DNA from: Escherichia coli
Lineage (GTDB): Bacteria; Pseudomonadota; Gammaproteobacteria; Enterobacterales; Enterobacteriaceae
Direction: 5' to 3' (one strand)
DNA length: 64,000 bases
Assembly: GCA_902500125.1 (NCBI GenBank)
Contig: GCA_902500125.1_4132.1
The number at the start of each line of letters is the position of its first letter. Position 1 is the stretch's first letter. The position numbers and the translations under genes are program-made. The notes beneath the pieces are model-generated. The model worked only from the letters and a program-made list of their open reading frames with translations. It made no database searches and was not told the origin of the DNA. Shown one piece after another: positions 1 through 64,000 of this stretch.

Positions 1-39
1 TCTGAAGAAGAATTCTTTCAAAGAAGTACTATTATCGAT

Positions 40-258
40 ATGAAAGATTTCACATATGAATCATTGGTTGAACTCAATACACGTTTTAACGATATTCAGG
101 AACGATTGCGACCAATTCTTCGTATCGAAGAAGAAGCCTGGATTGAAAGTATTAGGAAGATGCAAGAAATGTTGAAAGAAAATATTAACAATCTGGGTAA
201 AGCTACAATGGAATTTGGTAAAACTTTTAAACTGAACTTTTCAAAGGATCGTAAATGA
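40..258 (+). CDS. hypothetical small protein
   Basis: track ORF; first gene of colinear + strand block; no recognisable motif. Confidence 0.45.
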   Translation: MKDFTYESLVELNTRFNDIQERLRPILRIEEEAWIESIRKMQEMLKENINNLGKATMEFGKTFKLNFSKDRK

Positions 259-710
259 AAATTGATAATTTGATTCATGTTTTAGGATCTTTACATAAAA
301 TATTATCACATCTACATGAGATAAAGAAACTGGGATTTAACATCTCAAATTCAATTGAAACTACATTTAAATATCAATCAATTACTGGTGATGGTTATTA
401 CATAATCGAATATACTTATGAAACCGATCCAGACTTCTATCCTCTTACGTTGAGAATTTATCCAACAAATCCGAGAGGAATTCACGACATATCATCAATT
501 TCACTTGATCCAGATGGTGAAACGAGTATTGAATACAATAATGATTCAAAACCAGAATTTTACATTGATGATATTAAAATGATGTTCAACGATGAATATG
601 TTTTCCAACAAAGTACTGTGCATGATGTTGGAAGTACTAATGGACAATTTTGGAATACATGTTATTATCATATGATTGAAATTTGTAAATTACTAAAAGG
701 CGATGATTAA
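255..710 (+). CDS. hypothetical protein, EExFQxSTV-motif family
   Basis: track ORF; start overlaps previous stop; C-terminal NDEYVFQQSTVHD motif shared with >=15 ORFs in window. Confidence 0.6.
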   Translation: MKIDNLIHVLGSLHKILSHLHEIKKLGFNISNSIETTFKYQSITGDGYYIIEYTYETDPDFYPLTLRIYPTNPRGIHDISSISLDPDGETSIEYNNDSKPEFYIDDIKMMFNDEYVFQQSTVHDVGSTNGQFWNTCYYHMIEICKLLKGDD

Positions 711-1093
711 TGAAATACAGCATTGAAGTACATTACACTACAGGGGACACTGAAAATTGTTATGACGTTCTTAATACAATTGATATTCAATGGTCTTCTA
801 AAGAGGAAGCAGTTGCTGCTTTACAGTGCCTAAAAGAGCATTGGGTGTTTTATATGAAGCAAGATAATTGCTATACTAAAGAACACGAAACTATCGTTGA
901 AAATGCTAAACAAAAAGAGTGGTTTGACCCAATATCACCAGAATATTCATTCTTGGTTAAAGTTGGCGATGTGACAGTTCCATTACGAACACCGTGGAAC
1001 GGCTACTTTGAAACTCTTCATAATGCACGAGTTGTCGCTGTTGATAATCCTGAGCAAATCGATTTCGATTCATTGGACTGGAAAAAACTATGA
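710..1093 (+). CDS. hypothetical protein
   Basis: track ORF; ATGA overlap with upstream gene (translational coupling). Confidence 0.55.
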   Translation: MKYSIEVHYTTGDTENCYDVLNTIDIQWSSKEEAVAALQCLKEHWVFYMKQDNCYTKEHETIVENAKQKEWFDPISPEYSFLVKVGDVTVPLRTPWNGYFETLHNARVVAVDNPEQIDFDSLDWKKL

Positions 1094-1533
1094 CAGTACT
1101 GCACCAATTAAAGAAGGTTAAGCATCCAGTTGTATACGAGGATTGGAAACGACAGAAGTTGATGGGTGATTTTTATTTCCCAAAATCTAAAGTTCTTGCG
1201 AATTCAAGATGTACATATTTCAAACATAATGATAAAGATACAGTATTTGTTGAAATGGGTTTCAATCCATCAAATACAATGTTCAGTACTAACCAAACAT
1301 TTTACAAATTTCATATCCAAAAAGATTCATTTTCTATTATGATTATAAAATTTTTAGTTGAAGATCTGGTATACAGTGAAGAAAGAGTTCCTTTATCATT
1401 AGTGGATATTCCTTATGATAATTTAGAGGAAATGTACTTCCAACAGTTGACAGTACAAGAAAACTTTGGTATGATAGGACTTCAAGAGTTAGAGATGATT
1501 AAGCAAATTCGTGATATCTACTTTAAGGAGTAA
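1090..1533 (+). CDS. hypothetical protein, EExFQxSTV-motif family
   Basis: track ORF; C-terminal LEEMYFQQLTVQE motif. Confidence 0.6.
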   Translation: MTVLHQLKKVKHPVVYEDWKRQKLMGDFYFPKSKVLANSRCTYFKHNDKDTVFVEMGFNPSNTMFSTNQTFYKFHIQKDSFSIMIIKFLVEDLVYSEERVPLSLVDIPYDNLEEMYFQQLTVQENFGMIGLQELEMIKQIRDIYFKE

Positions 1534-1693
1534 CTATGCCAGTACGTAACAGTACTTCACGCTTTACGCTTCAACAGAAAGCAGATCTTTTGAATATGGC
1601 AAACAAAGATTCTAATTTTCACTATCTAGTACTCGGTGGTTCAGTTGAAAAGATTGACCTACGTGAGTGTATGAAATAACAAAAGGGGCTAAA

Positions 1694-1864
1694 ATGAGTC
1701 TACGTGAATCATGGGAACAATTTAAAGAAGAGATTGGTTATCGTGGTGTTAAGATTGAAAAAATCAATCGAACAGAAAGCATCAAAGCCAGTACTAATGG
1801 CACTACCTATGATCGTTATGATGAAAAGTATGGTTTGCATTCTAAACCGAAGGATACTGAATAA
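1694..1864 (+). CDS. hypothetical small protein
   Basis: track ORF 1667..1864 trimmed to internal ATG (MSLRES) preceded by AAAGGGG RBS. Confidence 0.45.
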   Translation: MSLRESWEQFKEEIGYRGVKIEKINRTESIKASTNGTTYDRYDEKYGLHSKPKDTE

Positions 1865-2003
1865 TGGTATACACTAACATTTTTACTGGTATTATGCGTA
1901 AATTTATTAATGGTACTGGATACGTATCTAATGACAACGGTAGTACATGGGTAAAAAATAATACTTCTGAATCTTTAGTAAAAAGTCTTCCGTATTATAA
2001 AGC

Positions 2004-2032
2004 TTGACACATGAAAATGGAGTATATATAAT
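2004..2032 (+). promoter_or_regulatory. sigma70-type promoter (TTGACA-N17-TATAAT)
   Basis: near-consensus -35/-10 hexamers with 17-bp spacer upstream of ORF 2065. Confidence 0.55.
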
Positions 2033-2064
2033 ACTCCTATATTAATTAAACGAGGATATACGAA

Positions 2065-2637
2065 ATGGCTGGTGTTGATAAAATTTGTGAATTCAGTTCA
2101 GATTATGAAGGTTACGAGATGTACAAGTCCAAGCGTAATCACATTCAAGTACTGTCAAAGTACCGTAAAGAATTCCGAGGCCACAAAGCAACATTGTATG
2201 TTTTTGAGAATGGATATTCTGAAGTTTTCACAAGTGGTGGGTACAGTACAGCTAACATGGCACATATCAACCCAAACCCAACTGAAGATGATTGGAATAG
2301 TGGTAACGCTTTTCGTATTTCAATTTTGAATAAAATGAATCGTTACGACCGTTATTGTACATTCTTTGAAAATATTTCAGAATACAAACAAGCATTAAAG
2401 AAATATAATCAACGCTTACTAATGAATTATGATTACATTCTTCATGTGCCAACTGTTCCAGGTCAGGTTAATGGTCTGTATACGAATAGTACACATGATT
2501 TAACTGCGGTGAAGCGTCGCCTCAAACGTATGTTGGGTTGTCGTAATTTAACAATCAAGGTTATGCGTAATGAATCAATGTATAACTTTTTAGATGTACT
2601 ACACTACACACTGAAGGATAATAATGGAAACGATTAA
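2065..2637 (+). CDS. hypothetical protein (190 aa)
   Basis: track ORF; RBS-like GAGGA upstream; no recognisable motif. Confidence 0.6.
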   Translation: MAGVDKICEFSSDYEGYEMYKSKRNHIQVLSKYRKEFRGHKATLYVFENGYSEVFTSGGYSTANMAHINPNPTEDDWNSGNAFRISILNKMNRYDRYCTFFENISEYKQALKKYNQRLLMNYDYILHVPTVPGQVNGLYTNSTHDLTAVKRRLKRMLGCRNLTIKVMRNESMYNFLDVLHYTLKDNNGND

Positions 2638-2821
2638 GTTTATGTTTGAGGTGTTTGTTGCATTCATCTTATGTGCTGTGTCTCTTACTATTGCTTTAAT
2701 CCCAGTAATCGTTTACCAAGTTAATGGTGGGACAGATCCAACAATTGATATTTTACTTCGTTGTTTCGGCTTTTTTATATGGTTGGCGATGTTTATGTAC
2801 TACATGCATCTTGAGGATTGA
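2624..2821 (+). CDS. small membrane protein (2 predicted TM helices)
   Basis: track ORF; hydrophobic stretches in translation. Confidence 0.5.
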   Translation: METIKFMFEVFVAFILCAVSLTIALIPVIVYQVNGGTDPTIDILLRCFGFFIWLAMFMYYMHLED

Positions 2822-62945: not shown

Positions 62946-62954
62946 AAGAACAAT

Positions 62955-63140
62955 ATGCATAAAGAATTCTACTTAAGCCATCTCGATCTAAACTCCCAAA
63001 TGCTTATACCACTAATCCCAATAGATATCAAGGATAAGAAAAATACCGAACAATTCATTTACCATACACAGTGTGCGATCACCCCAAATTACATTCCATA
63101 TGAATTGTACTACATTATCGCCCTAATATATAGGTACTAA
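62955..63140 (+). CDS. mini-protein, tandem array
   Basis: track ORF; MHKEFYLSHL..IALIYRY. Confidence 0.55.
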   Translation: MHKEFYLSHLDLNSQMLIPLIPIDIKDKKNTEQFIYHTQCAITPNYIPYELYYIIALIYRY

Positions 63141-63141
63141 T

Positions 63142-63327
63142 ATGCATAGAGAATACTACACACAATTTGTTAAAGGGAACTACAAACATGCCGTACCCAG
63201 AACCCCTTTAAATTCTCATGACCCAAGTACTATATTCTTGTTTAATGACGCAATACGTACAGTACTCAATACTAAAGATGAACAAGTGCAGTACGTATTC
63301 TTACTATTACTTATATACAGACACTAA
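63142..63327 (+). CDS. mini-protein, tandem array
   Basis: track ORF; MHREYYTQFV..LLLIYRH. Confidence 0.55.
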   Translation: MHREYYTQFVKGNYKHAVPRTPLNSHDPSTIFLFNDAIRTVLNTKDEQVQYVFLLLLIYRH

Positions 63328-63332
63328 CTAAT

Positions 63333-63542
63333 ATGAATAAAGAACATAAAGAATACTACTCCAAACACCTCAGCCCCTCAGAACAAATGTTTCTAAGGAC
63401 TACTCCACCTTTAAGTACTAATACATTTTTCGGCAGAGTATGCTACAATAATTGTATTCAAATGACTTTAAACGCAAACGAAGATGGTAACAGTACTAAC
63501 CTGTACTCAGGTATCATAGGTATACTATTCCTGTATGAATAA
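63333..63542 (+). CDS. mini-protein, tandem array (near-duplicate of 60349..60558)
   Basis: track ORF; MNKEHKEYYSKHLS..FGRVCYNNCI..YSGIIGILFLYE. Confidence 0.55.
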   Translation: MNKEHKEYYSKHLSPSEQMFLRTTPPLSTNTFFGRVCYNNCIQMTLNANEDGNSTNLYSGIIGILFLYE

Positions 63543-63723
63543 TTACAAAGACTTCTATTTGAATACACTACCTACTGTACTTTCTCTAAGTGCTCAATGT
63601 AAAATCCCGCTGGATAATGCTTACGCCAGATATAGCTATTCCATAACTGTTAATCGATGTATAGAGAATCATTGCAGTACTAACCAGTACTATAACATAA
63701 TCCTACTTATATTCAGGTACTAA
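63535..63723 (+). CDS. mini-protein, tandem array (paralog of 60551..60745)
   Basis: track ORF; MNNYKDFY..ILLIFRY. Confidence 0.5.
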   Translation: MNNYKDFYLNTLPTVLSLSAQCKIPLDNAYARYSYSITVNRCIENHCSTNQYYNIILLIFRY

Positions 63724-63724
63724 T

Positions 63725-63907
63725 ATGAATAAAGAACATAAAGAATTCTATATACGAAAACTAACATTCGTCCCCGTAAGAATATATAAAGAATGCGACC
63801 CAAGATTATACCTATGGCACTTCAATGAGTGCATAAAAGATTCTATATACCATAAGAACTATAAAGAACAATTGTGCTCAGTACTAACACTAGTACTATC
63901 ATATTAA
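63725..63907 (+). CDS. mini-protein, tandem array
   Basis: track ORF; MNKEHKEFYIRKL.. Confidence 0.5.
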   Translation: MNKEHKEFYIRKLTFVPVRIYKECDPRLYLWHFNECIKDSIYHKNYKEQLCSVLTLVLSY

Positions 63908-63922
63908 TTAATAGAGAATACT

Positions 63923-64000
63923 ATGTATAAAAACTTCTATATAAGTAAACTAAAAGAAAATGAACAAGTATGGATTAGATCTATAATTCCACTGGCATTT
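63923..64000 (+). CDS. mini-protein, tandem array (truncated by window end)
   Basis: ATG ~63923, MYKNFYISKLKENEQ..; continues past window. Confidence 0.4.
   Translation, partial: MYKNFYISKLKENEQVWIRSIIPLAF

Follow-up and report, generated by a model that had tools for sequence, protein, structure and literature searches.

Introduction

Short DNA words that occur far above chance across a whole replicon are known from several bacterial systems, including Chi, the FtsK-orienting polar sequences (KOPS), and the uptake signal sequences (USS) and DNA uptake sequences (DUS) of Haemophilus and Neisseria. These words are found within genes in all reading frames, at a cost in codons and amino acids, and single copies turn over while the density is kept. 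The hexamer AGTACT has the same properties in the stretch of DNA analyzed here, 64,000 nucleotides of an Escherichia coli assembly (GCA_902500125.1, contig GCA_902500125.1_4132.1; hereafter the window). The source is a 121Q/PBECO4-like Asteriusvirus, a Rak2-like jumbo phage. By megablast the window is 96-98.5% identical to E. coli jumbo phages of the Asteriusvirus group, among them 121Q, PBECO4 and Sharanji, and its counterpart in 121Q lies at about 63.4-127.4 kb. USS and DUS often form inverted pairs that make terminators, and AGTACT does likewise. However, Chi and KOPS are asymmetric, orientation-biased and read by a translocating enzyme, while AGTACT is a viral word and perfectly palindromic. 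With its symmetric flanks it cannot carry orientation as Chi does. USS and DUS serve DNA uptake in competent bacteria, while AGTACT is carried by viruses and by a prophage-like element and is not in excess on the host chromosome. AGTACT also reaches 2.6-7 copies per kb, and it has no known reader. In kind it belongs with Chi, USS/DUS, nucleoid-occlusion sites and other functional words that are over-represented; what is new is a viral palindrome that runs against the avoidance rule and is without a known reader.

Three other kinds of site resemble AGTACT in part. The SlmA-binding site (SBS), which like the Noc site marks DNA at scattered positions rather than controlling genes, has a palindromic AGTACT core and a dimeric helix-turn-helix reader (PMC3020112). 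AGTACT in the phage differs in preferring C and disfavoring G beside the core, with SBS-type half flanks depleted 2.5-fold, and in number, with about 900 copies in the phage compared to about 50 SBS in E. coli. Phage operators over the -35 and -10 elements (lambda cI/Cro, P22 Arc/Mnt, SPO1 TF1) are paired palindromes on the same helical face that bracket the spacer. The AGTACT palindromes also occupy fixed positions over core promoter elements, but they are not confined to regulatory regions and have no identified regulator; classical operators occur at few promoters, while more than 80% of AGTACT sites are intragenic. Finally, AGTACT is of the same sequence class as the sites of type II restriction-modification systems, and ScaI and Eco255I recognize it (AGT^ACT). 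It is enriched 7.7-13.4 times instead of being avoided, and no ScaI-type methyltransferase or nuclease was recognized, the methyltransferases examined being a short C5 enzyme and a Dam-family enzyme (two of three). GATC, with Dam, SeqA and MutH and with the pac site of phage P1, is similar in being a short palindrome found both genome-wide and in regulatory clusters that control promoters and packaging; Dam methylation of GATC controls promoters and pac cleavage in P1. GATC is however not strongly over-represented genome-wide.

Full-text literature searches found no description of AGTACT, ScaI or CAGTACTG together with these phages, and the papers on RaK2, CBB and Sharanji do not mention the palindrome (PMC3622015; PMC5259590; PMC11895373). 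The explanation favored here, tentatively and with somewhat less than even confidence, is that AGTACT, or CAGTACTG in full, may be a site under selection in duplex DNA that is recognized by a symmetric sequence-specific factor, marking phage DNA about 25-fold over that of the host and forming an operator pair at early promoters.

Results and discussion

AGTACT is about ten times more frequent in the window than expected. By exact count there are 202 copies, or 3.2 per kb. The expectation is 21.8 from base composition, 20.3 from a first-order Markov model, 39 from a second-order model and 78 from a third-order model; a fourth-order model gives 163, which is of no use here, as its 5-mers are themselves built from the AGTACT motif. 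In 100 dinucleotide-preserving shuffles the count was 20.15 ± 4.60 with a maximum of 34, and none reached 202. The full 8-bp palindrome CAGTACTG accounts for 47 of the 202 copies, compared to 1.01 ± 1.05 in the shuffles. Among all 4096 hexamers the three most over-represented are AGTACT, CAGTAC and GTACTG. Gaps between sites are close to a Poisson distribution. A sequence-only reading of this DNA had judged by eye that the palindrome was heavily over-represented and had proposed a k-mer count against a Markov expectation; the ratio came out at 9-10 rather than near 1, a stronger excess than first claimed. The local counts in that reading were also correct, with eight sites in the first 2 kb (25, 612, 633, 1095, 1285, 1551, 1628, 1790) and five at 59.88-60.2 kb (59879, 59936, 60022, 60129, 60157).

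The excess is found throughout the genome and in all Rak2-like genera sampled. Whole-genome Asteriusvirus counts were made on 350 kb of a close relative, OR844650.1, pieced together without annotation. This sequence has 918 AGTACT compared to 119 expected (7.7 times) and 204 copies of CAGTACTG, which is 59 times expectation and makes it the highest-ranked 8-mer. Enrichment is 8.5 times in vB_Ec-M-J, 8.6 in RaK2, 11.4 in XbC2 and 13.4 in CBB, and GAP32 shows it as well, so that Asteriusvirus, Alcyoneusvirus and Mimasvirus are all included. Site density is about 2.6-4.5 per kb genome-wide in the Rak2-like jumbo phages, about 25 times that of the host chromosome. The E. coli chromosome has six AGTACT per 50 kb, the chance level of 0.12 per kb; as carrier replicon against foreign DNA, the comparison is 2.6-3.2 per kb in the phage to 0.12 in E. 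coli DNA. There is no excess in the more distant jumbo phages PA5oct, Atu_ph07 and XacN1 or in T4, and the motif is depleted in these.

Coding usage does not account for the number of sites. Open reading frames (ORFs) of the window contain 167 sites, in all three frames (75, 41 and 51), and 35 sites are noncoding. Synonymous codon shuffling within each ORF gives 49.8 ± 5.6 sites and shuffling of codon order gives 24.8. For the whole Asteriusvirus genome, synonymous shuffling gives 220 ± 14 compared to 761 observed. Codon-pair usage in repeated protein motifs, which the sequence-only reading had named as a way to explain the excess, thus falls short. The pressure for the motif reaches the protein sequence, as is seen in the surplus of Ser-Thr dipeptides (140 in the window, 86 expected; 75 of the 140 are spelled AGTACT) and of Val-Leu dipeptides (171 in the window, 112 expected).

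It is very unlikely that the excess is a passive by-product, whether of codon-pair or dipeptide usage, of paralogous repeats, of a mutational or biased-repair sink, or of compensation for the removal of other palindromes. Some of the density at about 60-64 kb does come from paralogous RCC1-like genes and repeated terminators. However, the excess is equal outside the paralog array, with 141 sites in the first 50 kb, about eight times expectation, and the synonymous and codon-order shuffles are 3-7 fold short. These results rule out a codon, dipeptide or repeat artifact. AGTACT is a double-transition derivative of the forbidden GGTACC, and avoidance of GC-rich palindromes is general in these genomes and occurs also in phages without the excess, but the roughly 32 expected GGTACC sites cannot feed 918 AGTACT. 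A conversion sink, including directed repair like very short patch (VSP) repair, is contradicted by the lack of any depleted one-mismatch neighbor and by the enrichment of the outer-position variants themselves. In addition, a prophage that is replicated by its host while integrated keeps the excess and its flanks do not, and synonymous and noncoding positions have changed less inside the sites than around them.

AGTACT sites are under purifying selection at the DNA level. Selection was measured against vB_Ec-M-J, which is 87.8% identical over 41 kb. AGTACT is intact at 81.5% of sites, compared to 56.4% for all hexamers. Third-codon divergence is 0.103 inside the sites and 0.223 elsewhere (p = 1.7e-5), and noncoding divergence is 0.009 inside and 0.099 elsewhere. 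Gains and losses of sites are nearly balanced (24 and 22). In orthologs shared by Asteriusvirus and RaK2, at 48% amino acid identity, eight of 40 sites are found at the same codon position compared to 0.12 by chance. The remaining 80% have moved with density unchanged, and both the density and the flank rule described below hold across the three genera despite this turnover.

The selected word is longer than the hexamer. The sequence-only reading had taken AGTACT as the unit, which proved too short; the word under selection is the 8-mer CAGTACTG with graded tolerance. In the window, C precedes the hexamer (position -1) in 94 of 202 sites and G follows it (position +6) in 100 of 202. A G at -1 or a C at +6 is disfavored, and a weaker T-rich/A-rich shell extends the preference to TTCAGTACTGAA. 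The same mirror is seen in every lineage, with C(-1)/G(+6) and T(-3/-2)/A(+7/+8) preferred and both G(-1) and C(+6) disfavored, giving CAGTACTG as the optimal form and (T/C)CAGTACTG(A/G) as the extended form. In OR844650.1, CAGTACT and AGTACTG are 20-22 times expectation and GAGTACT[A/C/T] is about 1 times. The two flanks are statistically independent, occurring together in 204 of 918 sites (0.22, with 0.21 expected). The NGTACN variants are all enriched, by 1.5-2.8 times, and changes at inner positions are not enriched. This graded pattern fits a binding-energy gradient around a GTAC core. AGTA followed by a base other than C is only 0.8-1.1 times expectation, so the C and hence the GTAC core are required, and this excludes the primase trinucleotide GTA and the DnaG word CTG as sources of the signal. 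Information content is at background beyond ±3 bp of the sites, and the commonest flanking 14-mers occur at most twice. With no extended shared flanks, and with sites in about 150 different ORFs and all frames, the motif is not part of a repeated intergenic element (a repetitive extragenic palindrome, REP, or one like a miniature inverted-repeat transposable element, MITE) or a tandem coding repeat. True repeat artifacts look different, for example the collagen-like GSTGPQ repeat in one of the loci compared (L037).

The symmetry of the flanks argues for recognition of duplex DNA rather than RNA. The preferences are reverse-complement symmetric also when sites are read in sense-strand orientation, where 158 sites have only the C and 204 have only the G. 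A signal acting in RNA would be AGUACU, present in every transcript regardless of gene orientation and serving an RNA-binding protein, a nuclease or RNA-RNA pairing. The palindrome does occur in the transcript of either strand, and most sites are in transcribed DNA. However, the flanks are not strand-specific once codon effects are allowed for, transcription does not cover the sites in promoter spacers or beside the -35 element, and nothing in RNA requires a palindrome. Action in RNA is thus extremely improbable.

AGTACT has two fixed positions in early promoters. Metagene analysis shows 4.8 sites per kb in noncoding DNA compared to 2.4 in coding DNA, with one peak 30-70 nt upstream of start codons and another 0-30 nt after stop codons. 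The upstream peak is due to a conserved early promoter and the peak after stop codons to terminator stems built from the palindrome. The early sigma-70 promoter has the form A-AGTACTTGCAA, in which AGTACT overlaps the first T of the -35 element, followed by N9-10, a second AGTACT, one base and TATAAT. The two sites start 20-22 bp apart, and gaps of 20-22 bp are over-represented. Dual-site promoters number 14 in CBB 1-60 kb, seven in the Asteriusvirus genome, three in the window and two in XbC2. In CBB they occupy almost every intergenic space of the early region in the terminal repeat. The geometry is conserved across genera without nucleotide similarity, and many more promoters carry only the site beside the -10 element. 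The canonical extended -10 element was considered and rejected as the reason for that site, as the G of AGTACTG is at -13 and not -14, and CBB has T or A there. The authors of the CBB genome described RpoD-like promoters with an 'UP-like element' and did not mention the palindrome (PMC5259590). Promoters, hairpins and extended palindromes identified in the window are as follows.

9898..9927, + strand: sigma-70-type promoter TTGACT-N9-AGTACT-G-TATAAT, with a single site abutting the -10 element
10373..10412, + strand: dual-site early promoter AGTACTTGACT (AGTACT overlapping the -35 element), N10, AGTACT-G-ATAAAAT, with site starts 20 bp apart (10373/10393)
11145..11184, + strand: dual-site promoter AGTACTGGACA-N9-AGTACT-G-ATATAAT just upstream of tRNA-Ser(gct), with sites at 11145/11165
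29199..29228, + strand: promoter TTGACA-N9-AGTACT-G-TATAAT
43856..43885, + strand: promoter TTGACA-N9-(ttc)AGTACT-G-TATAAT
29215, 33524, 43872 and 45412: sites of promoters equivalent to that at 9898..9927, the first and third of them within the two promoters just listed
5875..5900, + strand: terminator-like hairpin ACCCAGTcaAGTACTGGGT followed by a T-run, with AGTACT inside stem and loop
58620..58660, - strand: terminator-like hairpin GCCAGTACTtgAGTACTGGC with a T-run in the RCC1-like array, with two sites 8 bp apart
51823, 56619 and 57437: hairpins similar to that at 58620..58660
13476..13489: ATTCAGTACTGAAT, a perfect palindrome of 14 bp and the extended motif optimum, in a noncoding part of the tRNA region
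13597..13610: ATTCAGTACTGAAT again, also as a perfect palindrome of 14 bp

The sequence-only reading had placed the palindrome in promoter spacers, hairpins and two perfect 14-bp palindromes. All of these contexts exist, with ttcAGTACTgtataat in spacers at 9914 and 43872, gccAGTAC..AGTACTggc in hairpins at 56619 and 58626/58634, acccagtcaAGTACTgggt at 5884, and ATTCAGTACTGAAT at 13476-13489 and 13597-13610. They are however a minority use, and most sites are intragenic. The idea of a regulator operator is strengthened by the two promoter positions 21 bp apart, which are conserved in Asteriusvirus, CBB and XbC2, but noncoding DNA has no more than about 17% of the sites.

AGTACT is the single strong exception to palindrome avoidance in Rak2-like genomes. 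Phage genomes are a textbook case of such avoidance, which the sequence-only reading had taken as its premise, and the premise holds here. Avoidance was scored on the whole window and OR844650.1 (loci L189-L195). In the 350 kb of the latter, 23 palindromic hexamers with four or six G/C have zero copies, where about 32 are expected for each four-G/C word and about 8.5 for each all-G/C word. The absent words include GGATCC, CTGCAG, CCATGG, GAGCTC, GTCGAC, GGTACC and CGTACG, and others are nearly absent. Asteriusvirus does not avoid GAATTC, GATATC or CACGTG, but CBB and XbC2 have no GATATC. RaK2 DNA is reported to resist many restriction enzymes, which may simply reflect these missing sites.

Some other words are also over-represented. 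The E. coli Chi sequence GCTGGTGG has 12 + 16 copies on the two strands of OR844650.1 compared to 0.75 expected per strand (28 vs 1.5, about 19 times), and the Chi-related hexamers CTGGTG, TGGTGA and GTGGTG stand out in the window. Part of the Chi excess may come from repeated RCC1-like coding motifs. In sub-family A of the prophage-like elements described below, all five copies of Chi have the same orientation. CCACCA, ACCACC and CACCAC are 8-12 times over-represented at about 50-64 kb of the window because of the minus-strand tandem RCC1-like ('chromosome condensation') paralogs with near-identical intergenic terminators.

AGTACT might be the target of DNA modification by a phage enzyme. Methylation or another mark at these sites could serve as an epigenetic self-mark or a timing signal, which would be the reason for the density. 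The motif is a compact palindrome of the type II recognition class, and sites flanking the -35 and -10 elements would suit methylation-sensitive promoters. About 900 unprotected sites for a specificity known in E. coli would make the genome fragile. Rak2-like phages carry three DNA methyltransferases (PMC5259590; PMC11895373), one of them just left of the window (121Q gene 91). This enzyme is however a short C5 methyltransferase of the DNMT3/HhaI type, and the authors of the RaK2 genome report CpG methylation (PMC3622015), while AGTACT contains no CpG; it was therefore rejected as the reader. The enzyme examined in CBB and XbC2 is a Dam-family (PF05869) methyltransferase, and no methyltransferase is annotated in a complete 34-kb copy of the prophage-like element. 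Sites of modification are as a rule not over-represented, and serving as one does not in itself account for CAGTACTG at 59 times expectation. Modification is unlikely on this evidence.

Two islands in Asteriusvirus are free of AGTACT. They are 5-8 kb long, at 285.4-293.7 kb and 296.1-301.1 kb of OR844650.1, with normal base composition, and correspond to 375-8092 and 10536-15909 of Sharanji (OR545507.1), within the first 16 kb of that record. Both contain arrays of small paralogous genes, and the second is also without GTAC. The 14 kb that follow them are the densest part of the genome, with 6.4 sites per kb. The islands indicate that the requirement for the motif is not absolute. A direct terminal repeat of 20.7 kb has been reported for Sharanji. 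The position of the islands at the start of Sharanji fits with motif-free DNA entering the cell first, as in the first-step transfer of T5. In CBB, however, the experimentally supported terminal repeat has no such islands, and its 73 sites in 10 kb are the highest density of any region seen; entry of motif-free DNA first is thus not a rule for the clade.

A second, unrelated lineage has the same excess. Pattern scans of IMG/VR, the first of which returned mostly noise or coding repeats, give lower bounds from the matches listed. Among these matches are Rak2-like contigs and a large family of contigs of 28-40 kb with 38-44% G+C, comprising at least about 100 IMG/VR contigs and also loci L185-L187 and L188 (NZ_CP158147.1 1174080-1208300). 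AGTACT is enriched 4-11 times in sub-family A and 10-16 times in sub-family B, whose proteins are about 38-40% identical to each other; CAGTACTG is about 150 times expectation in sub-family B. These are siphovirus-like elements integrated in Enterobacteriaceae, including four genomes of E. coli, Escherichia sp. ESNIH1 and Pseudescherichia vulneris. The copy of E. coli FDN-24 is inserted in ybhA and has a serine recombinase gene and complete sets of genes for packaging, head, tail and lysis, along with about 7 kb of genes without known function; no repressor or replication module could be recognized in it. The 34-kb element has 57 sites compared to one in 14.7 kb of flanking chromosome, and synonymous shuffling gives 16.3 ± 3.5 compared to 53 observed. 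The flank rule and the complete lack of GGTACC and CGTACG match the jumbo phages. Nearest cultured relatives of the tail protein have no AGTACT excess, and the element has no close cultured relative in the phage collection. Similarity of palindrome profiles was given little weight as evidence of a common cause, for the Spearman correlation of 0.85 compares with 0.57-0.71 in excess-free controls.

Searches with phmmer and jackhmmer found three things in common between the two lineages: a lysozyme (E ~1e-36), a small 'LFQxSL' paralog family and an HNH-AP2-like gene. The protein encoded by the latter has an HNH-like N-terminal half and an AP2-like C-terminal half, and is 37-40% identical between CBB and family B. 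Copies are located as follows.

L004 17752-18360: HNH-AP2-like gene, CBB gp063
L005 14749-15696: HNH-AP2-like gene
L188 4936-5439: HNH-AP2-like gene
Several family-B contigs: further HNH-AP2-like copies

Presence of this gene in Mimasvirus and in both prophage sub-families points to gene exchange between AGTACT-rich lineages. It also bears on the possibility that AGTACT, or CAGTACT on either strand, is the site of a nicking or cleaving phage endonuclease such as an HNH enzyme, whose nicks or breaks would start recombination-dependent replication, the loading of clamps for late transcription, or the processing of the genome. These genomes encode many HNH endonucleases, the HNH-AP2-like family is common to CBB, XbC2 and both prophage sub-families, and the independent flanks are as compatible with a monomer that reads a 7-mer on one strand or the other as with a dimer. 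The family is however missing from the Asteriusvirus proteome and the RaK2 segment and thus cannot be the universal reader, and free-standing HNH genes are typical mobile elements. One site per 300-400 bp is also far denser than in any known nick system; T5 has a handful of nicks. Nicking is accordingly quite improbable.

An excess common to two lineages raises the question of a host reader. A protein of Enterobacterales may read the motif, with both lineages having converged on it, either as a decoy that activates a division inhibitor of the nucleoid-occlusion type or as a 'do not cut' signal of the Chi/RecBCD kind. Jumbo myoviruses and the ~34-kb siphovirus-like elements have the same hexamer, flank rule and lack of GGTACC/CGTACG, and they share only the lysozyme, the small paralog family and the mobile HNH gene. 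The 19-fold enrichment of Chi in the phage indicates that these genomes adopt host signals. The SlmA site GTGAGTACTCAC has an AGTACT core (PMC3020112), and SlmA would have accounted for the filaments formed by cells infected with Sharanji (PMC11895373). However, SlmA itself is excluded by its flank requirements. Its site, the 12-bp palindrome GTRAGYRCTYAC, needs G1, T2, A4, G5 and a purine at position 3 (Tonthat et al. 2011, PMC3020112). OR844650.1 has no full sites in 350 kb and only 19 SBS-type half flanks compared to 47 expected, and the base preferred beside the core is C rather than a purine. With six copies per 50 kb the host chromosome is at chance level, and the motif thus differs from Chi in not being a self-signal of the host. 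Xanthomonas is the reported source of XbC2, one of the enriched phages. To our knowledge no E. coli protein has AGTACT-type specificity. A host reader seems distinctly unlikely in view of these points.

A broader proposal, which is speculative and also unlikely, is that CAGTACTG could be a dense heritable self-signature shared by two unrelated mobile elements, the virulent Rak2-like jumbo phages and the ~34-kb integrated elements, and read by one machinery. The reader might then be a host protein exploited by both. Alternatively, a jumbo-phage factor might spare, replicate or transcribe only DNA that bears the signature, and the integrated element would mimic it as a hitch-hiker or satellite.

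Recognition of CAGTACTG in double-stranded DNA by a symmetric sequence-specific binding factor is the explanation favored above. Such a factor would load preferentially on phage DNA because of the roughly 25-fold higher site density, making the sites a genome-wide mark of self. In early sigma-70 promoters one site covers the first base of the -35 element and the other ends one base before the -10 element; starts 20-22 bp apart place them on the same face of the helix, where the same factor may act as an operator pair that switches early transcription. The reader would more probably be a DNA-binding protein than an enzyme, and could be of either phage or host origin. Once bound, it may shut off early transcription, compact or protect the DNA, or discriminate it from that of the host.

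Several observations weigh against this explanation. Comparison of the two enriched lineages with phmmer and jackhmmer yielded no assignable cognate protein, methyltransferase or nuclease, and the sole shared type of nuclease or DNA-binding protein, the HNH-AP2-like family, is missing both from the proteome of Asteriusvirus and from the 50-kb stretch of RaK2 that was examined. About 83% of sites (760 of 918) are inside genes, where a pure operator model needs none. The two Asteriusvirus islands have no sites at all. The prophage-like family has none of the dual-site promoter arrangement and shares no obvious regulator with the jumbo phages; a single reader for both would thus have to come from the host, or to have been exchanged horizontally and have diverged beyond detection, or there is none. 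The sequence-only reading had suggested a functional site such as an operator, a modification or nicking target, or a packaging signal. Function at the DNA level stands, based on synonymous shuffling, site constraint, symmetric flanks and occurrence in three genera, but the choice among these roles cannot be made with certainty, and binding, modification and nicking are inseparable from sequence alone. This and the failure to find the reader are the reasons that confidence in a binding factor is limited.

Other features of the window

The window contains about 130 small plus-strand genes, mostly unannotated, with a tRNA cluster and a sigma-70-family factor, followed by a minus-strand array of RCC1-like paralogs. 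Two of the tRNAs serve the codons AGT and ACT, both of which are inflated by the motif.

11185..11274, + strand: phage-encoded tRNA-Ser(GCU), which reads AGY codons
14046-14117: tRNA-Thr(UGU)

A group I catalytic intron is found in the tRNA cluster right after tRNA-Ser(gct), as an Rfam match at 11374-11688 (99 bits, E = 2e-24). In 121Q and vB_Ec-M-J a tRNA-Met is annotated near this position.

A nearly invariant noncoding block is located at 26945-27145 (core ~26965-27050), in a gene-free stretch of about 720 bp after the sigma-factor gene. It is matched in Pectobacterium phage CBB (32440-32629) and in Xanthomonas phage XbC2, with few base differences in the ~85-nt core between genera that otherwise have no nucleotide similarity. 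RNAalifold predicts a modest stem-loop structure with two compensatory pairs, and there is no match in Rfam. The block is possibly a conserved small RNA or regulatory element.

The 'LFQxSL' proteins form a family of small proteins (~105-190 aa) with a C-terminal motif resembling D-x-T-x-x-x-E-x-x-L-F-Q-(Y/E)-S-L-(V/L)-(F/Y)-D. Members are found in the window at 36961-37557 and 255-710, and OR844650.1 has at least 25 more (~273-295 kb). Others are in RaK2 (L003 10876-11292) and E. coli FDN-24 (L188 3813-4130). The family is expanded in Asteriusvirus and RaK2, and one member adjoins the recombinase of the unrelated prophage-like element.

Conclusions

This clade of phages keeps about 900-1700 copies of one palindrome per genome despite the cost in codons and amino acids and the risk of ScaI-type restriction, which implies a strong and so far undescribed function. 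The motif has practical uses as a conserved early-promoter signature for the clade and as a simple k-mer marker for finding these phages, and the unnoticed prophage-like family, in metagenomes. It is also a warning that reported resistance to restriction digestion may merely reflect missing sites. If the self-signature proposed to be shared by the two lineages is real, it would be a mode of discrimination between self and non-self based on sequence density, distinct from base modification and from the phage nucleus. These phages have neither a phage nucleus nor hypermodified bases, and a mark 25 times denser than in the host makes the question of how they tell their own DNA from that of the host directly testable.

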